IMG/VR virus record: IMGVR_UViG_3300029241_000122
Span: 1 to 6,432 of that record
Strand: one strand, 5' to 3'
DNA length: 6,432 nt
Origin: a virus
Taxonomy: Duplodnaviria > Heunggongvirae > Uroviricota > Caudoviricetes
Part shown: piece after piece, positions 1 to 6,432 of the stretch
How positions within the stretch are numbered: position 1 is the stretch's first letter
How the letters are laid out: each line of letters starts with the position of its first letter
Position numbers and translations under genes: made by a program
The notes under the pieces: model-generated
Seen by the model: the letters and a program-made list of their open reading frames with translations, nothing else
Told to the model about the DNA's origin: nothing
Databases searched by the model: none

Positions 1-221
1 TGATAGAAACAGAAGCCACTGGAGCACCTCAAAAACACCATCATACACTAAATCAGTAAGTTGGCAGCATCACCAACATAATCTGTCGCGAGTGCCGGAA
101 GAGTGAAGCTATGCAGCGTGTACTGGCTTTCTATCAGGGTAATTTTCAGGAGGCGGTACTGTGAGTGAAATTAGCTATCAGGCTTCAATTACCGCTGGCA
201 TTCGCATCAAAGGAGAGGAGC

Positions 222-578
222 ATGGAAATAAAACCAGAGGATGAGTTAAGCAATATCGTTTTATTTCCGGTAAAAGAGGATGACCCTCGTAATCAGGTTA
301 ATTTTCTTTATGAGCCATCGGAAAGACCATATTGTCATCACGCCTCTGTCCGGGTTGACGAAAAAGAGCGTCAGGTCCGCTGTAAAATCTGCGGTGCAGT
401 TGTGGAGCCATTTGACTGGATGCTCTCTGTGGCGAAAAGAGAAACCAGACTGGCAGATGATGTAAGGCTCTTGCGTCAGGAGGAGCGGGAAAGGCGAAAA
501 AATATAGAAAAGCTAATTCAGATTGAGCGTAACGCGAAAGCGCGGATACGCAGGGCGACAAAATCCAGAACTGAATAA
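222..578 (+). CDS. Hypothetical protein, 118 aa, with a Cys/His zinc-ribbon-like motif (PYCHH...x13...CKICG) and a basic coiled-coil-like C-terminus
   Basis: ATG at 222 is preceded by the SD AGGAG (211-215) at 6-nt spacing; stop TAA at 576-578. The ORF track uses an in-frame GTG at 165 (alternative start, 11 nt after AGGAGG 148-153). A 27-codon uORF (GTG 161 to TGA 242-244, SD spacing 7 nt) overlaps the ATG and could be a coupled leader. Function unknown. Confidence 0.6.
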   Translation: MEIKPEDELSNIVLFPVKEDDPRNQVNFLYEPSERPYCHHASVRVDEKERQVRCKICGAVVEPFDWMLSVAKRETRLADDVRLLRQEERERRKNIEKLIQIERNAKARIRRATKSRTE

Positions 579-642
579 TTAAATTTAGCTCTGTTAAAAA
601 TTTAATCCTTAACCGGAGGGATTTCTGCACCCTCAGAACATC

Positions 643-674
643 AGGAGGCCGCCCGAAAGGGCGGTAGTTAAATG
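643..674 (+). promoter_or_regulatory. Structured ribosome-binding site: SD AGGAGG (643-648), then a 6-bp hairpin with GAAA tetraloop (649-664), then ATG (672)
   Basis: CCGCCC GAAA GGGCGG is a perfect 6-bp GC stem with a GNRA loop lying between the SD and the start codon. Linear SD-to-ATG spacing is 23 nt; with the hairpin folded the effective spacing is about 7 nt. No U-tract follows, so it is not a terminator. Confidence 0.35.
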
Positions 675-854
675 CGAAAGTTTAAAATAATTATTGAAAC
701 GGGAATAGCCGGTGGAGATTTCGAGGATGAATTCGAAGTGGATGATGATGCGACGCCTGATGAAATACATGACGAAGCAAAAGATATTTTCTTTAACTAC
801 TGCAATTACTCATATCACGAAATAAAAGACGAAGAGGAAGAACAAAATGGCTGA
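672..854 (+). CDS. Small highly acidic protein, 60 aa (D/E-rich, ends KDEEEEQNG)
   Basis: ORF with ATG at 672 directly after the hairpin-bridged SD. Its stop TGA (852-854) overlaps the next ATG (847) in an ATGGCTGA arrangement. Strongly acidic composition. Function unknown. Confidence 0.6.
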   Translation: MRKFKIIIETGIAGGDFEDEFEVDDDATPDEIHDEAKDIFFNYCNYSYHEIKDEEEEQNG

Positions 855-1023
855 TTTTGGTTCAACTAAATACAACGTCAGTTTTGAAGAATGGCATGAA
901 CTGTTAATGGGCTATGCAGAGTTACGTGGTGGCAGTGCTGCTGATGCTGAAGCATGGCGTGATGATTATGAAGCAGGAAAAACTCCGGTCGAAGCATATT
1001 GTGATGAGTGGGGCGATGAATGA
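847..1023 (+). CDS. Small acidic protein, 58 aa (MADFGSTKYNVSFEEWHELLMGYAELRGG...CDEWGDE)
   Basis: Falls below the 60-aa ORF-track cutoff and was found by hand translation. SD GAGGAAG lies about 7 nt upstream of ATG 847. Its stop overlaps the next ATG as ATGA (1020-1023). Composition is protein-like. Confidence 0.55.
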   Translation: MADFGSTKYNVSFEEWHELLMGYAELRGGSAADAEAWRDDYEAGKTPVEAYCDEWGDE

Positions 1024-1336
1024 GCGAGGTTAATTATCAGGAAGGGCATGAAACGGCGGGGCAAGCAAAAACAGTGGCATGGCGATATCGCTACGTGAAA
1101 AAAAAGGCGTTACGGACTTTCAGGGGAAGTAGTGGTCTGGTGACTGGAAATATGTACCGAAAAAAGAGGATTGTAACGACAGGCCGAACTATGAAATTCA
1201 GGCCTTATTCACTGCCCCGCCAGTCCCGGTTACATCAGAAGAACTGGTTAAAGCTGTGCACTTTTATGAACAACTAAAACGCGAAAATCCACCAGCATCC
1301 GGAAACCTGATTACAGATTCCCAGATAAGGCAATGA
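1020..1336 (+). pseudogene. Frame-disrupted ORF: N-terminal part in frame 0 (MSEVNYQEGHETAGQAKTVAWRYRYVKKK...), C-terminal part in the -1 frame (...DWKYVPKKEDCNDRPNYEIQALFTAPPVPVTSEELVKAVHFYEQLKRENPPASGNLITDSQIRQ, stop 1334-1336)
   Basis: Frame 0 after the A8 run (1098-1105) turns R/K-rich and junk-like. The -1 frame from 1133 to 1336 reads like real protein but has no start codon. Two in-frame A_AAA_AAG heptamers lie at 1100-1106 and 1160-1166. Either a homopolymer frameshift pseudogene or a -1 frameshift site. Confidence 0.4.
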
Positions 1337-1432
1337 GCTACCTGGCGCAGAACGGGCTGATAAGTATGGGGAATGTTTTACGATGAATATTTAGACTAAA
1401 GAGTTTGTAACGCTATGTAAGTGATTTTTTCT

Positions 1433-1460
1433 GGTTTAGATATTTATATGTCCGGCCAAA
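1433..1460 (+). repeat. Left copy of an imperfect ~30-bp direct repeat (GGTTTAG-ATATTTA-TATGTCCGGCCAAA)
   Basis: Matches the right copy at 1704-1735 over the blocks GGTTTAG (7/7), ATATTTA (7/7) and TGT.CCGG.CAAA. The two copies bracket the AT-rich islet that carries the small membrane protein gene. Confidence 0.5.
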
Positions 1461-1506
1461 TTGAGGTGTGTTTAAATGTAATTGCACATTGATTGTAGGA
1501 GGAATA

Positions 1507-1686
1507 ATGAAAAACGCATTGCAGTTTTTGTTTGTTGCGTTCTGGTTGTTCGTATCATGTATGCCCATCATCTTCACAGCAAGGTATATGGAAAAAGTTG
1601 ATGTTTTGATATTAATATTTGGATATATAAATGCCCTTTTTTTAGGGGTGTTCATGGCGGTCATGTGCATTGAATACTGGCGGTAA
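1507..1686 (+). CDS. Small membrane protein, 59 aa, with two predicted hydrophobic helices (MKNALQFLFVAFWLFVSCMPIIF...VDVLILIFGYINALFLGVFMAVMCI)
   Basis: Strong SD AGGAGG (1497-1502) lies 4 nt before ATG 1507; stop TAA 1684-1686. The ORF-track start (GTG 1468) is in frame but lacks an SD. Sits in an AT-rich block between the direct repeats. Confidence 0.6.
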   Translation: MKNALQFLFVAFWLFVSCMPIIFTARYMEKVDVLILIFGYINALFLGVFMAVMCIEYWR

Positions 1687-1703
1687 ATACAGCGAACGCC
1701 ATT

Positions 1704-1735
1704 GGTTTAGTTGGATATTTACTGTGCCGGACAAA
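1704..1735 (+). repeat. Right copy of the imperfect direct repeat (GGTTTAG-TTGG-ATATTTA-CTGTGCCGGACAAA)
   Basis: See the left copy at 1433-1460. This copy carries an extra TTGG and lies just upstream of the predicted hok promoter. Confidence 0.5.
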
Positions 1736-1741
1736 AACGGT

Positions 1742-1769
1742 TTGCGGGGAAATCTTAGTTAAGTAGAAT
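1742..1769 (+). promoter_or_regulatory. Candidate sigma70 promoter of the hok mRNA (-35 TTGCGG 1742-1747, 16-bp spacer, -10 TAGAAT 1764-1769)
   Basis: The predicted transcript start near 1776 begins GGGTGCTTGAGGCTATCTG..., which resembles the 5' end of plasmid R1 hok mRNA (GGCGCTTGAGGCTTTCTG..., recalled from memory). The leader around 1900-1945 also resembles the R1 hok leader (GATAGCCTCTTAC...AAGGAGAAG). Confidence 0.45.
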
Positions 1770-1888
1770 GACTGCGGGTGCTTGAGGCTATCTGTCTCAG
1801 GCATGAACACCAAAAGGCAGATAGAGAAAAGCCCCAGTTAACATTACGCGTCCTGCAAGACGCTTAACATTAATCTGAGGCCATATCT

Positions 1889-1948
1889 ATGCGACACATA
1901 GAGATTAGCCTCTTACGGACCGAAAGGTCAAGGAGAAGCAGGCTATGA
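1889..1948 (+). CDS. mok-like 19-codon leader ORF translationally coupled to hok (stop TGA overlaps the hok ATG in CTATGAAG)
   Basis: ATG 1889 to TGA 1946-1948, 4-nt overlap with the hok start. Position matches mok in hok/sok loci, but the ORF is much shorter than R1 mok. Confidence 0.4.
   Translation: MRHIEISLLRTERSRRSRL
1902..1931 (-). promoter_or_regulatory. Candidate Sok-like antisense promoter (minus strand: -35 TTGACC, 18-bp spacer, -10 TAATCT)
   Basis: The reverse complement of 1902-1931 reads TTGACC-N18-TAATCT. Transcription would run leftward from about 1895, antisense to the mok-like start region, as the Sok RNA does in hok/sok systems. No clean terminator was found for it. Confidence 0.3.
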
Positions 1949-2109
1949 AGCAGCAAAAGGCGATGTTAATCGCCCTGATCGTCATCTGTTTAACCGTCAT
2001 AGTGANNNNNNNNNNNNNNNNNNNNNNNNNNNNNNNCCTCTGCGAGGTATGAATCCGAACCGGCCAGACGGAGGTCGCTGTCTTCACAGCTTACGAACCT
2101 GAGGAGTAA
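1945..2109 (+). pseudogene. hokD: Hok/Gef family type I toxin gene (HokD/RelF-like), interrupted by a 31-N run and carrying an in-frame TGA at 2050-2052
   Basis: N-terminus MKQQKAMLIALIVICLTVIV matches HokD as recalled. After the N-run the frame reads LCEV-TGA-IRTGQTEVAVFTAYEPEE-TAA, i.e. the conserved Hok C-terminus with TGA where Arg (CGA) is expected. SD AAGGAG lies about 10 nt upstream of the ATG. Confidence 0.65.
2006..2036. other. Run of 31 N (unresolved or masked bases) inside the hok ORF
   Basis: Seen directly in the sequence. If the length is exact, the hok frame is preserved across it. Confidence 0.95.
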
Positions 2110-2178
2110 GAGACCTGGCGGGGGAGAAATCCCTCGCCACCTCTGATGTGTCAGGCATCCTCAACGCACCCGCACTTA

Positions 2179-2204
2179 ACCCGCTTCGGCGGGTTTTGTT
2201 TTTT
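2179..2204 (+). terminator. Rho-independent terminator at the hok mRNA 3' end
   Basis: ACCCGC-TTCG-GCGGGT hairpin (6-bp stem, UUCG tetraloop) immediately followed by TTTGTTTTTT. A second GC-rich hairpin lies upstream at about 2113-2136. Confidence 0.8.
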
Positions 2205-2276
2205 CCTGGCATTCTGGTTTACAATTCGCACGTCAGCCTGAACACCTGACACCTGCTGCGCCAGCAGAGAAAACAG

Positions 2277-2549
2277 ATGGCGCACAAAACCAAATTTCAC
2301 AATTCTGATACCGACCTTGCCATCCGGCATGAGCGGCGTTCACACGCATTTAAAACCGACTGGTACCAACACCCACCATGTACTGAAGAACAGGCCGAAT
2401 GGCTGATTCATTCTTACCGCAGGCGCGGGTTCGAGGTTAAGAAAGCTCTCAGTCTCGACTATCGGCACTGGATAATCTCTGTCAGGCTGCCTTATTCCGA
2501 ACGCCCACCACGTCCGTCCCGCACTTTCCAGCAACGGATCTGGAGGTAA
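2277..2549 (+). CDS. Hypothetical protein, 90 aa; possibly the N-terminal part of a disrupted gene that continues in the 2551 frame
   Basis: ATG 2277 has a weak SD and an in-frame stop just upstream at 2247. The C-terminal residues (PPRPSRTFQQRIWR) look out-of-frame, and the next ORF frame is already open from 2476. Confidence 0.35.
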   Translation: MAHKTKFHNSDTDLAIRHERRSHAFKTDWYQHPPCTEEQAEWLIHSYRRRGFEVKKALSLDYRHWIISVRLPYSERPPRPSRTFQQRIWR

Positions 2550-2550
2550 C

Positions 2551-2958
2551 GTGCGGGTATTACTTAGACCTGTTCTGGTGCCTGAGCTTGGGCTGGTGGT
2601 CCTTAAGCCGGGCCGTGAATCCATACAGATATTTCATAATCCTCGAGTGCTGGTGGAGCCGGAACCGAAAAGCATGCGTAATCTGCCGTCCGGGGTTGTT
2701 CCTGCCGTTCGCCAGCCGCTAGTGGAAGACAAAACATTGCTGCCGTTTTTCAGTAACGCACGGGTGATTCGTGCTGCTGGTGGTGCTGGTGCATTGTCTG
2801 ACTGGCTGTTGCGCCATATTAAATCCTGCCAGTGGCCACACGGCGATTATCATCACAGCGAAACCGTCATTCACCGTTATGGTACCGGCGCAATGGTGTT
2901 GTGCTGGCACTGCGACAACCAGCTGCGTGACCAGACAGGCGACCGCAATCATTACTGA
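2551..2958 (+). CDS. Cys/His-rich, zinc-binding-like C-terminal domain protein (CQWPHGDYHH...CWHCDNQ); resembles DUF968-type lambdoid prophage proteins (YdfU/YdaW-like), probably a fragment
   Basis: Starts at GTG 2551; stop TGA 2956-2958 abuts the ATG of the Rz fragment. The family assignment is from memory and unverified. Confidence 0.45.
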   Translation: MRVLLRPVLVPELGLVVLKPGRESIQIFHNPRVLVEPEPKSMRNLPSGVVPAVRQPLVEDKTLLPFFSNARVIRAAGGAGALSDWLLRHIKSCQWPHGDYHHSETVIHRYGTGAMVLCWHCDNQLRDQTGDRNHY

Positions 2959-2959
2959 C

Positions 2960-3265
2960 ATGCAGATACGCCAGCGTGATGTTGCTGCACTCGATGCAAA
3001 ATACCTGAAGGAGTTAGCTGATGCGAAAGCTGAAAATGATGCTCTGCGTGATGATGTTGCCGCTGGTCGTCGTCGGTTGCGCATCAAAGCAGTCTGTCAG
3101 TCAGTGCGTGAAGCCACCGCCACCTCCAGCGTGGATAATGCAGTCTCCCCCAGACTGGCAGACACCGCTGAACGGGATTATTTCACCCTCCGGGAACGAC
3201 TGGTAATGATGCAGGCCCAACTTGAAGGTGCTCAGCAATACATAACCGAACAGTGTTTAAAGTAA
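2960..3265 (+). pseudogene. rzpR: N-terminally truncated Rz i-spanin (lysis gene remnant)
   Basis: Translation ...ITDMQIRQRDVAALDAKYLKELADAKAENDALRDDVAAGRRRLRIKAVCQSVREATA...DYFTLRERLVMMQAQLEGAQQYITEQCLK closely matches the C-terminal two-thirds of lambda Rz. The N-terminal TM segment is missing. The longer track ORF from 2771 is an out-of-frame read of the upstream gene. Confidence 0.75.
3021..3206 (+). CDS. rzoR: Rz1 o-spanin outer-membrane lipoprotein, embedded in the +1 frame of Rz
   Basis: MRKLKMMLCVMMLPLVVVGC with lipobox VVGC, proline-rich PPPPPAW segment, 61 aa, near-identical to lambda Rz1 as recalled. SD AAGGAG lies 7 nt upstream of ATG 3021. Confidence 0.8.
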   Translation: MRKLKMMLCVMMLPLVVVGCASKQSVSQCVKPPPPPAWIMQSPPDWQTPLNGIISPSGNDW

Positions 3266-3402
3266 AATCTTAACTACAATATGATTCATTTTGATGATTG
3301 TTTCATAAGGAACAGTGAAGTAAGATCTAAGAGGAGTTAAATTTTATACAGTATAATCATAATATTGCAGCAAGGTGGTTATAATTGAAAGAATATTTAG
3401 AT

Positions 3403-4860
3403 ATGAATACATCTCATGTAAGAGTTGTTACTCATATGTGTGGGTTCCTGGTTTGGCTCTATAGTCTTTCAATGTTGCCACCAATGGTTGTAGCATTGTT
3501 TTATAAAGAAAAAAGCCTGTTCGTTTTCTTTATAACTTTCGTTATATTTTTTTGCATTGGTGGCGGAGCGTGGTATACAACTAAGAAATCTGGCATTCAA
3601 TTACGTACCCGTGATGGGTTTATTATAATTGTAATGTTTTGGATTTTGTTTTCTGTTATTAGTGCATTCCCTTTATGGATTGACTCAGAACTTAATTTAA
3701 CGTTCATTGATGCTCTGTTTGAAGGGGTTTCTGGAATAACAACAACAGGAGCAACTGTAATTGATGATGTTAGTTCATTACCTCGGGCATATTTGTACTA
3801 TCGGTCACAGTTAAATTTTATAGGTGGTTTAGGAGTTATTGTTCTGGCGGTTGCAGTATTGCCATTATTGGGTATTGGTGGTGCAAAGCTTTATCAGTCA
3901 GAAATGCCGGGGCCATTTAAGGATGACAAACTCACTCCCCGCCTGGCCGATACGTCACGGACACTGTGGATAACTTATTCTTTATTAGGTATTGCTTGTA
4001 TTGTCTGTTATAGACTTGCAGGAATGCCTTTGTTTGATGCTATTTGTCACGGGATTTCCACAGTTTCGCTTGGTGGTTTCTCAACTCATAGCGAGAGTAT
4101 CGGATATTTTAATAACTATTTGGTTGAGCTGGTGGCTGGTGCTTTTTCCCTGCTATCGGCTTTCAACTTTACTCTTTGGTATATTGTTATTAGCAGAAAA
4201 ACGATAAAACCTTTAATCAGAGATATTGAACTTCGTTTCTTTCTGTTAATAGCCTTAGTGGTGATCATTGTTACCTCTTTCCAGGTCTGGCATATAGGTA
4301 TGTATGACTTGCATGGAAGTTTTATTCATTCGTTTTTTCTTGCCAGCTCCATGCTCACTGATAATGGTTTAGCTACGCAAGATTATGCAAACTGGCCCAC
4401 GCACACGATAGTGTTTTTGCTGTTGTCAAGTTTCTTTGGGGGATGTATAGGTTCAACTTGTGGTGGAATTAAGTCACTTCGATTTCTTATACTTTTCAAA
4501 CAAAGCAAACACGAGATAAATCAGCTTTCTCATCCCAGAGCGTTGTTGAGTGTAAATGTAGGAGGGAAGATAGTTACAGATCGTGTAATGAGGTCTGTAT
4601 GGAGTTTCTTTTTTCTTTATACTCTCTTCACGGTGTTTTTTATACTGGTGTTAAATGGTATGGGATATGATTTTCTTACATCATTTGCAACAGTGGCTGC
4701 ATGTATTAATAATATGGGATTAGGTTTTGGGGCTACTGCATCGTCATTCGGAGTGCTTAATGACATTGCAAAATATTTAATGTGCATAGCTATGATTCTT
4801 GGTCGCCTTGAAATTTATCCTGTTATTATATTGTTTTCAGTTTTTTTTTGGCGCTCCTAA
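3403..4860 (+). CDS. trkG: TrkG, Trk-system K+ uptake membrane protein (TrkH/TrkG family), 485 aa
   Basis: Translation from ATG 3403 (MNTSHVRVVTHMCGFLVWLY...) matches E. coli TrkG as recalled and aligns with TrkH motifs (GATxxxxxSLP, EMPGP, GGxGSTxGG). Markedly AT-rich relative to flanks. An upstream TTG at 3385 preceded by AAGGTGG is an alternative start. Confidence 0.9.
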   Translation: MNTSHVRVVTHMCGFLVWLYSLSMLPPMVVALFYKEKSLFVFFITFVIFFCIGGGAWYTTKKSGIQLRTRDGFIIIVMFWILFSVISAFPLWIDSELNLTFIDALFEGVSGITTTGATVIDDVSSLPRAYLYYRSQLNFIGGLGVIVLAVAVLPLLGIGGAKLYQSEMPGPFKDDKLTPRLADTSRTLWITYSLLGIACIVCYRLAGMPLFDAICHGISTVSLGGFSTHSESIGYFNNYLVELVAGAFSLLSAFNFTLWYIVISRKTIKPLIRDIELRFFLLIALVVIIVTSFQVWHIGMYDLHGSFIHSFFLASSMLTDNGLATQDYANWPTHTIVFLLLSSFFGGCIGSTCGGIKSLRFLILFKQSKHEINQLSHPRALLSVNVGGKIVTDRVMRSVWSFFFLYTLFTVFFILVLNGMGYDFLTSFATVAACINNMGLGFGATASSFGVLNDIAKYLMCIAMILGRLEIYPVIILFSVFFWRS

Positions 4861-4943
4861 TATATGGCTGATTTATAATTGTGAGTTTAATATTATATTG
4901 ACTCACTCATTGATCCAATACCTAACTTTACCAGCAACACCTC

Positions 4944-4980
4944 CGCCCCCAGTAGCACTGGCTGCTGGGGTGCGTTTTAT
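4944..4980 (+). terminator. Putative intrinsic terminator downstream of trkG
   Basis: Stem CCCCAGTAGC / GCTGCTGGGG (10 bp with one G-U pair, loop ACTG), extendable by 3 bp with one bulge, followed by TTTTAT. It lies only about 18 nt before the next start codon, so it may be a partial terminator or attenuator. Confidence 0.45.
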
Positions 4981-4997
4981 TCATAAAGCAAGGCTGT

Positions 4998-5786
4998 ATG
5001 AGCGAGAAATTAAAGATAGTCTATCGCCCATTACAAGAATTGTCACCGTATGCGCACAACGCCAGGACGCACAGTACTGAGCAGGTGGCACAACTGGTAG
5101 AAAGTATTAAGCAATTCGGCTGGACTAATCCGGTGCTGATTGACGAAAAGGGCGAAATTATTGCGGGTCACGGTCGTGTTATGGCGGCTGAAATGCTCAA
5201 AATGGATTCTGTTCCGGTCATTGTTCTGTCTGGCCTGACGGATGAGCAGAAAAAGGCGTACCGCTTGGCAGATAATCGCCTACCGATGAATGCTGGCTGG
5301 GATGAAGATCTGTTGCGGATGGAGCTGTCGGTCCTAATCAATGCTGATTTTGATGTCTCCCTGACAGGCTTCGGCCCGACAGAAATTGATGAACTGTTGA
5401 CGGATGTTTTGCCCGGTATAGGAAATAAGGAGGAGCCGTATACGACGAAAATTGATACGCCTGTTTATGAGCCGTCGGGCGGTAAACCGGATATCAGTGA
5501 ACTGTACGACGATACGAAAACTCAGGAGCTGATCAGCCGGATACGTTCGGCGTCCCTTGATCCTGATATTGAGAAATTCCTCCTGTGTGCGGCAGAACGT
5601 CACACGGTGTTTAATTTCAGCAGAATTGCGGACTATTACGCTCATGCCCCCGCTGAAATTCAGTGCCTTTTCGAGGAGTCGGCGCTGGTGATCATTGATT
5701 ATCAGCAGGCTATTGAAAATGGATTTGTCCGAATGACGCAGCGCATGGTGGAGATCATGCATGGCGGGGAGGAGGAATATGCGTGA
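4998..5786 (+). CDS. ParB-like N-terminal domain (ParB/Srx fold, ParB-like nuclease type) protein, 262 aa, with an uncharacterised C-terminal half
   Basis: N-terminal about 95 aa (KIVYRPLQELSPYAHNARTHS...IIAGHGRVMAA...VIVLSGLTDEQKKAYRLADNRL) fits the ParB-like nuclease domain pattern. May correspond to an intact version of the Rac ynaK region (unverified). Its stop overlaps the next gene start. Confidence 0.75.
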   Translation: MSEKLKIVYRPLQELSPYAHNARTHSTEQVAQLVESIKQFGWTNPVLIDEKGEIIAGHGRVMAAEMLKMDSVPVIVLSGLTDEQKKAYRLADNRLPMNAGWDEDLLRMELSVLINADFDVSLTGFGPTEIDELLTDVLPGIGNKEEPYTTKIDTPVYEPSGGKPDISELYDDTKTQELISRIRSASLDPDIEKFLLCAAERHTVFNFSRIADYYAHAPAEIQCLFEESALVIIDYQQAIENGFVRMTQRMVEIMHGGEEEYA

Positions 5787-6381
5787 TGATTTTTGCGCCT
5801 TTATTCTGACTCACGGACGACCGGAAAAAGTTCTGACTTACCGGACGTTGCGTCGTGCTGGCTATACCGGGAAAATTTTTATCGTTGTTGATGATGAAGA
5901 TAAGACACGGCATCAGTACATGGCTGAATTTGGTGAACAGGTGCTGGTATTTTCCAAAGCCGATATCGCCAGTCGTTTTGACGAAGCCGATAATTTTGGT
6001 GACCGCCGCTCAATTTTTTACGCCCGTAATGCCTGTTTCGACCTGGCAAAACTGGTCGGGTGTAAATACTTCATTCAGCTCGATGATGATTATCACGAGT
6101 TCCAGTTTCGGGTGGATCGCAACTATGACCAGGCCTATTTCCCGATAAGGAAACTGGATGCGATCCTTTCTGAAATGCTGGCGTATTACGAATCAATACC
6201 CGCGCTTTCCATCGCTATGTCGCAGGGCGGGGATTTTCTTGGTGACAATGGCGGCCATGCTTCGTGGGTGAAACGCAAGGCAATGAACAGCTTTATCTGT
6301 TCGGTTGATCGACCGTTCTCATTCATGGGGCGCATTAACGAGGATGTGAATACGGGTAATGCTGCCAACTTACTGATTTAG
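5779..6381 (+). CDS. GT-A fold glycosyltransferase-like protein (family-2-like), about 200 aa
   Basis: Motifs CAFILTHGRP...KIFIVVDDED and RRSIFYARNACFDLAKLVGCKYFIQLDDDY fit the GT2 pattern (strand-helix-strand with acidic patch, then ARN...G.Y..LD.DD, the DxD motif). Strong SD GGAGGAGG before ATG 5779, which overlaps the ParB-like stop by 8 nt. An in-frame ATG at 5761 is an alternative start. Confidence 0.6.
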   Translation: MRDDFCAFILTHGRPEKVLTYRTLRRAGYTGKIFIVVDDEDKTRHQYMAEFGEQVLVFSKADIASRFDEADNFGDRRSIFYARNACFDLAKLVGCKYFIQLDDDYHEFQFRVDRNYDQAYFPIRKLDAILSEMLAYYESIPALSIAMSQGGDFLGDNGGHASWVKRKAMNSFICSVDRPFSFMGRINEDVNTGNAANLLI

Positions 6382-6432
6382 TGTATGATGGTGATTTTAA
6401 GGTGCTTGCGTGGCTTCCATTTCCATCAGATG
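6381..6432 (+). CDS. Partial ORF running off the window end (VYDGDFKVLAWLPFPSD...); either a coupled downstream gene or a -1-frame continuation of the glycosyltransferase-like gene
   Basis: GTG 6381 overlaps the TAG stop 6379-6381 by 1 nt. The frame is open from 6360 to the window end. Confidence 0.3.
   Translation, partial: MYDGDFKVLAWLPFPSD

Follow-up and report, generated by a model that had tools for sequence, protein, structure and literature searches.

The DNA analysed here (hereafter the window) is a stretch of 6,432 nt, positions 1 to 6,432 of the IMG/VR virus record IMGVR_UViG_3300029241_000122, and derives from a Rac-type lambdoid prophage of Escherichia coli or Shigella. In front of a hok toxin locus it carries an AT-rich block with a 59-codon open reading frame (ORF), here called ORF59. 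The explanation that best accounts for the data as a whole, and which we hold with good confidence, is that Rac/lambdoid prophages of E. coli and Shigella have, in their early-right (nin-type) region, a slot that can be filled by at least two alternative accessory cassettes, and that this block is one of them. The slot is bounded on the left by the conserved 3' end of an early gene and on the right by the hok promoter. An earlier note on this DNA had described the block as an AT-rich islet that encodes a small membrane protein and is bracketed by direct repeats of about 30 bp, which might mark an insertion or serve as regulatory sites.

The borders of the cassette were determined by comparative genomics. 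Two prophage loci, L088 (NZ_CP091691) and L002, carry a different sequence in the same place, and relative to both of them identity ends just after ...TTTTACGATGA (1376-1386) and restarts at AAAACGGTTTGCGGG (~1732). The junctions lie at 1386/1387 and ~1731/1732, and the exchanged unit is 345 bp long. In L088 the upstream gene ends in the same way as in the window, with ...CTGATAAG..GGA...TTTTACGATGA, and the hok promoter begins with the same AAAACGGTTTGCGGG. The conserved 3' end of the upstream gene (~1356-1386), which is common to L088 and the window, constitutes the left recombination flank. Both reference loci agree with the window on the left as far as ATGA and on the right from AAAACGG onwards, and have an 81-bp ORF in place of positions 1387-1731. 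In agreement with the reported AT-rich block, the GC (guanine plus cytosine) content is 0.33-0.38 over ~1350-1700, compared with 0.44-0.50 in the flanks of the window. A homologous block, corresponding to window 1372-1724, is found in the Rac-prophage remnant of E. coli Nissle 1917, where it holds a diverged paralogue of ORF59.

Positions 1337-1728 matched 1,570 E. coli records, of which 1,553 covered 80% or more of the segment, without exception at identities of 95% and above, and the distribution of the cassette in E. coli is all-or-none. No partial or empty form was found among the 1,570 records, and an exact-flank pattern allowing a gap of 0-30 nt returned 0 matches in IMG/VR. The empty site with a single remaining repeat copy, which the earlier note had proposed to look for, was not present in the collections searched; the other state of the slot is a different cassette. 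A few odd breakpoints among 80 IMG/VR loci (1312, 1439 and 1946) were also considered as module borders and were rejected, as they are insertions of insertion sequences (IS).

The different cassette, present in ~1,370 genomes, is about as common as the one with ORF59. Its 81-bp ORF is GC-rich, is translationally coupled to the upstream gene via ATGA and encodes a 27-residue peptide with a single transmembrane (TM) helix. It lies at 3738-3821 in L088 and at 2424-2507 in L002, with the sequence MTWPEA[L/F]TTVGIAMAVALVVYSICRWG, and is without annotation in both RefSeq records examined. In O157:H7 prophages the same ORF is placed directly against the hok promoter. The peptide gave a weak PHROG match (phrog_4612, E = 0.011). 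Both it and the ORF59 product are small and hydrophobic and are encoded between the 3' end of the upstream gene and the hok promoter, but they are unrelated in sequence, and ORF59 possesses a Shine-Dalgarno (SD) sequence of its own whereas the peptide ORF is ATGA-coupled. Homology between the two was tested and was not significant (shuffle p = 0.05 against ORF59 and 0.93 against the paralogue).

Cassettes that alternate between short conserved flanks are what lambdoid mosaicism normally leaves, unlike an insertion with target duplication, and recombination in conserved homologous or homeologous flanks is the accepted route by which this mosaicism arises (PMC2327257; PMC3945230). The cassettes of this slot would have been exchanged by homologous or homeologous recombination in their conserved flanks rather than inserted with target duplication. 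The architecture is ordinary and implies no new mechanism. In lying between the replication genes and Q, in its deviant G+C content and in being carried by some collinear prophages and replaced in others, with its junctions placed in short conserved flanks, the ORF59 cassette resembles the accessory (moron-like) cassettes of the nin/early-right region of lambdoid phages. This agrees with homeologous recombination as the origin of lambdoid mosaicism (PMC2327257; PMC3945230). Like a moron, the ORF59 cassette is present in some phages and absent from close relatives, with a deviant base composition. A classical autonomous moron would also bring its own promoter and terminator; for this cassette neither was detected, by a scan that misses the hok promoter as well, and its alternative state is another small ORF instead of an empty site. 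Of the accessory islet proposed in the earlier note, the comparison thus recovered a segment of deviant composition that some related prophages carry and others have replaced; its delimitation by repeats was not supported. The comparison also defines a slot for recombination ahead of prophage hok loci.

The direct repeats are present (Table 1), but they are weak, and the description of the block as bracketed by them proved inaccurate: the left copy is set 46 nt into the cassette, and the right one lies across the right junction, its end GGACAAAA belonging to the flank common to prophages without ORF59. Aligned without gaps, the copies share 25 nt at 72% identity, and with gaps they reach a local score of 25 with two indels. 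It has been considered that the repeats are scars of the insertion that brought in ORF59, left by target duplication or site-specific recombination, or two sites for one regulator of both ORF59 and hok. Such a role appears very improbable to us. It would agree with the right copy ending where cassette and hok promoter meet, a short distance before the hok -35 element, with the pair being the best direct repeat in 1337-1775 (439 nt), and with a post-hoc test of the leader against the tail only (p ~0.001). In the unbiased regional test, however, 5 of 60 dinucleotide shuffles scored as high (p ~0.08). Across a complete 37-kb prophage the score lies within the chance range (shuffled maxima 19-26), and an unrelated repeat pair (D2) in the same 600 bp is as good, with 23 nt at 78%.

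As boundaries of an insertion, the repeats disagree with the comparative junctions, and the right copy covers two modules of different ancestry; a repeat-bounded insertion was rejected from these junctions and from the absence of any empty site. As reiterated regulatory sites they fare no better. A search for the motif revealed no third copy in the complete 37-kb prophage. Neither the paralogous cassette of the Rac remnant, whose stretch homologous to the left copy is only ~48% identical to it, nor a decayed copy of the cassette at locus L091 shows a detectable repeat, and the cassette of the 27-residue peptide carries no such motif either. Moreover, 7 of the 26 polymorphic sites of the segment fall within these 60 nt (four in the left copy, at 1433, 1450, 1452 and 1457, and three in the right one), which makes them the most polymorphic part of the segment and argues against operator function. 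Operators were rejected on this lack of recurrence and conservation together with the high polymorphism. The repeats are best read as an incidental resemblance within AT-rich DNA or, at the very most, as the decayed remains of an ancient duplication, with no role as border or operator.

We now turn to ORF59 itself. The earlier note had reported a 59-codon ORF with a near-perfect SD; both stand, with the correction that the ATG is at 1507 and not at 1508. An exhaustive HMMER search, which covered 1.84 billion representatives and was complemented by a metagenome scan, yielded only two clades apart from near-identical copies. The second clade is the diverged relative mentioned above (P0037/P0043), a protein of 59 residues that is 41% identical to ORF59 and aligns with it from 1-59 to 1-59. 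By these searches the family appears to consist of two members and to be restricted to Escherichia/Shigella. Residues W13, S17-C18, P20-I21-I22, T24, F38-G39, N42-A43-L44, E56 and W58-R59 are invariant in the two-clade alignment. ORF59 was intact in 155 of 156 sampled loci and was found in 1,552 of 5,426 complete E. coli genomes (~29%). The paralogue occurs in 1,045 of these genomes (a further 19%), in a Rac-prophage remnant between ttcA and uspF, and its carriers include Nissle 1917 and ST131-type strains. In Nissle 1917 (locus L097, NZ_CP007799.1) it is an intact 59-codon ORF at 6190-6369; it is without RefSeq annotation.

Comparison of the two clades argues for translation. Start, stop and length are the same in both, and the alignment contains no gap column in the coding sequence (CDS), compared with six in the leader and four in the tail. 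Identity at codon positions 1, 2 and 3 is 58, 71 and 47%, and the ratio of non-synonymous to synonymous substitution rates (dN/dS) is 0.23. A GTG-extended form of 72 residues was rejected: in the paralogue, a stop codon interrupts the frame 5 codons before the homologous ATG and fixes the start at this ATG. Judged by its sequence evolution, ORF59 is a true protein-coding gene, or was one until recently.

In the complete phage vB_EcoS-640R1, the gene is located in the pR (rightward early) operon, in a nin-type region between the replication genes (O/DUF977) and DUF968-rusA-Q, and the lysis cassette follows downstream of Q. No promoter-like or terminator-like site was found in 1250-2177 by a consensus scan, which is insensitive and also misses the hok promoter, and a relaxed promoter scan gave no site conserved with the paralogue. 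Since no promoter or terminator of its own was detected, ORF59 would be co-transcribed with the upstream early genes, after derepression of the prophage, and translated from its own strong SD. Its product would act in the inner membrane as a non-essential accessory factor.

Several observations weigh against this picture of a functional early gene. Polymorphism within the clades is nearly all non-synonymous, with 1 synonymous to 9 non-synonymous changes in ORF59 and 0:3 in the paralogue (the frameshifted L091 excluded), so that present-day purifying selection is not visible; dN/dS within the clades was accordingly discarded as a proof of coding, being uninformative or even negative. ORF59 may be drifting in defective prophages, and in the diverged copy L091 it is frameshifted and has lost its SD while hok is intact. 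The AT-rich leader may contain an internal promoter. In none of the RefSeq records examined did the NCBI Prokaryotic Genome Annotation Pipeline (PGAP) call a CDS at ORF59, and the family, fold and database searches did not find a functional homologue.

Some of these points would also suit a reading in which ORF59 is untranslated and the block is a non-coding AT-rich spacer or hok upstream region with a chance ORF, or in which the gene is a real one on the opposite strand. Besides the missing PGAP call and the non-synonymous excess, such a reading could draw on the nucleotide identity to the paralogue, which is alike in the CDS (60%) and the flanks (54-64%), and on other pipelines, which annotate the antisense strand: an 85-codon antisense ORF is annotated in ON470612.1 (23105-23356) and PV340562.1 (10959-11210), once as 'hornerin' and otherwise as a hypothetical protein. 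We consider this reading improbable. At 41% amino acid identity the start, stop and length are exactly kept without a single indel while the flanks gain indels, the codon-position pattern and dN/dS suit the coding frame, and the SD is strong. The antisense ORF has no SD and is split into pieces of 27 and 33 codons in a paralogous locus (L092), and on these grounds it was rejected as a gene. It and ORF59 have their third codon positions in common, and for this reason it has remained open as a shadow; the 'hornerin'-type annotation is a wrong-strand gene call. ORF59 is thus omitted by RefSeq in the records examined and replaced by the wrong strand in phage GenBank records. A corrected gene call touches thousands of genomes and enlarges by one family the small membrane proteome of prophages, which is under-counted. 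A literature search on hok, prophage and small membrane proteins and on peptide strings returned nothing on ORF59.

The predicted ORF59 protein is a two-helix hydrophobic protein, as described before. Kyte-Doolittle hydropathy peaks at residues ~4-25 and 33-56, separated by RYMEKVD, and the AlphaFold2 model is a helical hairpin with helices at residues 2-26 and 32-58 and a pLDDT (predicted local distance difference test) score of 72. From the charge distribution, both termini are probably cytoplasmic and the short loop periplasmic. ORF59 had no match in Pfam (E <= 1), PHROGs, NCBIfam or PADLOC, and Foldseek searches against BFVD and the PDB gave generic hairpins only (E > 0.7). Small phage membrane proteins with two TM helices include the class II (pin)holins and superinfection-exclusion proteins such as Imm of T4. 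ORF59 shares with them its size class, the predicted helical-hairpin topology and the phage origin, but there is no match in sequence or structure above chance, and ORF59 lies outside the lysis cassette and has no charged C-terminal tail. With regard to class II holins, the two TM helices are present, but the gene is located upstream of Q and far from S/R/Rz, and the C-terminus is only EYWR.

A lipobox, as in PROSITE PS51257, has the form [LVI..][ASTVI..][GAS]-C at positions 15-35 after an n-region with K/R. Both family members conform to this rule: they read LFVS-C18 and IVIS-C18 with K2 or R2K3 within the first 7 residues, and S17 and C18 are invariant. ORF59 could thus be a lipoprotein precursor, whose residues 1-17 form a signal peptide and which is cut by signal peptidase II at S17-C18 to leave a lipidated peptide of 42 residues with one C-terminal TM helix. 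In line with this, the N-terminus of the paralogue aligns with the signal peptide of the Rz1 lipoprotein of this window (block-shuffle p = 0.002); ORF59 itself, however, does not (p = 0.72). The residues after Cys18 (MPIIFTA) are hydrophobic, helix 1 of the AlphaFold2 model runs through Cys18 to residue 26, which argues weakly against cleavage, and a lipobox-like triplet in front of a cysteine in a TM helix is common by chance. Processing as a lipoprotein is therefore a doubtful option, and we favor the uncleaved two-helix protein.

ORF59 is located directly upstream of hok, as the earlier note had stated: the hok leader and the hok CDS, identified by the Rfam match and the HokD comparison (Table 1), follow the cassette, and ORF59 is co-oriented with hok, 258 nt upstream of its start codon. 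The hok leader adjoins the cassette in 1,550 of 1,553 E. coli records. The Rac remnant has lost nearly all other prophage DNA and keeps the paralogue followed by a 3' fragment of hok, which indicates that the arrangement of cassette and hok is ancestral to both lineages; the linkage is ancient. Homology with hok loci that lack ORF59 begins at window 1729-1757, and such loci are in the majority, with ~10,700 hok-like places compared with ~1,640 places with ORF59.

Type I toxins of the Hok/Gef family (PF01848, acting with Sok) resemble ORF59 in being small hydrophobic inner-membrane proteins with a Cys in the first TM helix, and ORF59 physically adjoins a hok/sok locus. TM1 of ORF59 also showed a weak in-register similarity to the TM helix of Hok (block-shuffle p = 0.009 for ORF59 and 0.08 for the paralogue), which is the kind of signal given by hydrophobic helices. 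The differences are more extensive. ORF59 has two TM helices instead of a single N-terminal one, lacks the periplasmic, Cys-containing soluble C-terminal domain and gives no match to the PF01848 profile. It is also without a mok-like leader ORF coupled to it, a sok-like RNA or an antisense promoter: no RNA family was found over ORF59 by Rfam, the sok model matching 1776-1947 only, and no antisense promoter was predicted. An hhalign comparison of the ORF59 and HokD alignments gave a probability of 2.3%, with a Hok alignment of low diversity (the large protein search behind this shallow profile returned only near-identical HokD sequences). Homology of ORF59 to Hok was rejected on the missing Pfam Hok_Gef match and the hhalign result. 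In size and hydrophobicity ORF59 corresponds to a generic type I toxin.

ORF59 might nevertheless be a second membrane-active toxin or a partner of Hok, such as a modulator or immunity factor, and form a two-gene membrane-damage module with it. Favorable to this idea are the small size, the strong hydrophobicity, the orientation and the proximity to hok, the near-constant pairing in the E. coli records, the adjacency kept in two lineages that are only 41% identical, the small TM peptide encoded by the alternative cassette of the slot, and the weak similarity between TM1 and the Hok TM helix. On the other hand, neither the profile searches nor the scans for an antisense promoter or RNA family support a toxin of this type, and the two genes do not share their fate. 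In 44 of 135 informative loci hok is disrupted by an IS and ORF59 is intact, and the paralogue is intact beside a mere hok fragment in the Nissle-type remnant; conversely, hok is intact at L091, where ORF59 has decayed, and most hok loci do without ORF59. Simple physical linkage can explain the adjacency. We therefore regard a toxin or Hok partner as unlikely. That ORF59 and its paralogue represent a new family of prophage membrane effectors working with Hok, either as a pore-forming or depolarising toxin or as a membrane-embedded modulator or immunity factor, is a still more speculative proposal; if true, the slot before the hok promoter, holding either ORF59 or the 27-residue TM peptide, would be a dedicated 'partner' position. 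Tight in position and loose in fate, the association of ORF59 and hok appears to be better described by physical linkage within one mosaic module than by functional dependence.

The 44 of 135 loci correspond to a large IMG/VR haplotype group (L053-L081), in which the IS sits exactly at the hok start codon (window 1946) and ORF59 is intact. The hok copy of the window was compared with HokD, for which intact copies in L091 and 90 other loci were used. It has gaggtaTGAatcc where intact HokD genes have CGA (Arg33), and is probably a nonsense pseudogene. The run of N within it appears to be 9 nt longer than the stretch it replaces. A weak Rfam match to isrK, a small RNA of the Gifsy-1 prophage, at 2118-2199 stayed below the gathering score (27 bits against 50); it spans the 3' end of hok and the only terminator-like hairpin of the region (2178-2195).

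Table 1. Features in and around the ORF59 cassette (window coordinates).
Feature	Position	Strand	Basis
Upstream gene (phrog_660 family), frameshifted or deleted here	1020..1386	+	PGAP pseudogene in a 100%-identical record
AT-rich mosaic cassette (5' leader, ORF59, 45-nt tail)	1387..1731	+	comparative junctions
Antisense 85-codon 'shadow' ORF, not a gene	1413..1670	-	ORF list, phage records
Left copy of the imperfect direct repeat, within the ORF59 leader	1433..1460	+	sequence
Shine-Dalgarno AGGAGG, 4 nt before the ATG	1497..1502	+	sequence
ORF59 CDS, predicted 59-aa two-helix inner-membrane protein (MKNALQFLFVAFWLFVSCMPIIFTARYMEKVDVLILIFGYINALFLGVFMAVMCIEYWR)	1507..1686	+	sequence, homologue, AlphaFold2
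Right copy of the repeat, across the cassette/hok-promoter junction	1704..1735	+	sequence
hok promoter region, right recombination flank; -35 TTGCGG 1742-1747, -10 TAGAAT 1764-1769	1732..1775	+	relaxed scan
hok mRNA leader / sok antisense region	1776..1947	+	Rfam RF01794, 106.7 bits, E = 3.2e-24
hok (HokD-type) CDS; N at 2006-2036, apparent premature TGA 2050-2052	1945..2109	+	sequence compared with intact HokD

The intact form of the upstream gene encodes a protein of 171 residues (WP_001289994.1). In addition to its frameshifted state, the copy in the window has a deletion of ~44-57 bp around 1300-1313 relative to many loci. A 119-residue version of the phrog_660 family with a different C-terminus points to another mosaic junction near window 1295.

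Apart from the genes described above, the window contains a DUF968 fragment, an Rz/Rz1 remnant, trkG and a ParB-like gene. It begins and ends in IS1 termini (1-74 and 6355-6432), which are inverted relative to each other and 88% complementary over 74 nt. With an IS1 copy on either side, the 6.3-kb prophage fragment thus resembles a composite element, and an ORF at 5761-6381 is cut short by the right-hand copy. Complete E. coli genomes did not contain the exact IS1/prophage junction, which suggests a Shigella-like source of the window. A truncated DUF968 gene at 2551-3265 breaks off after ~129 codons, where the C-terminal part of Rz is joined to it; an intact Rz1 (rzoR-like) ORF is located at 3021-3206 and is followed by the AT-rich trkG at 3385-4860. 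This arrangement is the deletion architecture also seen in the Rac prophage of E. coli K-12.

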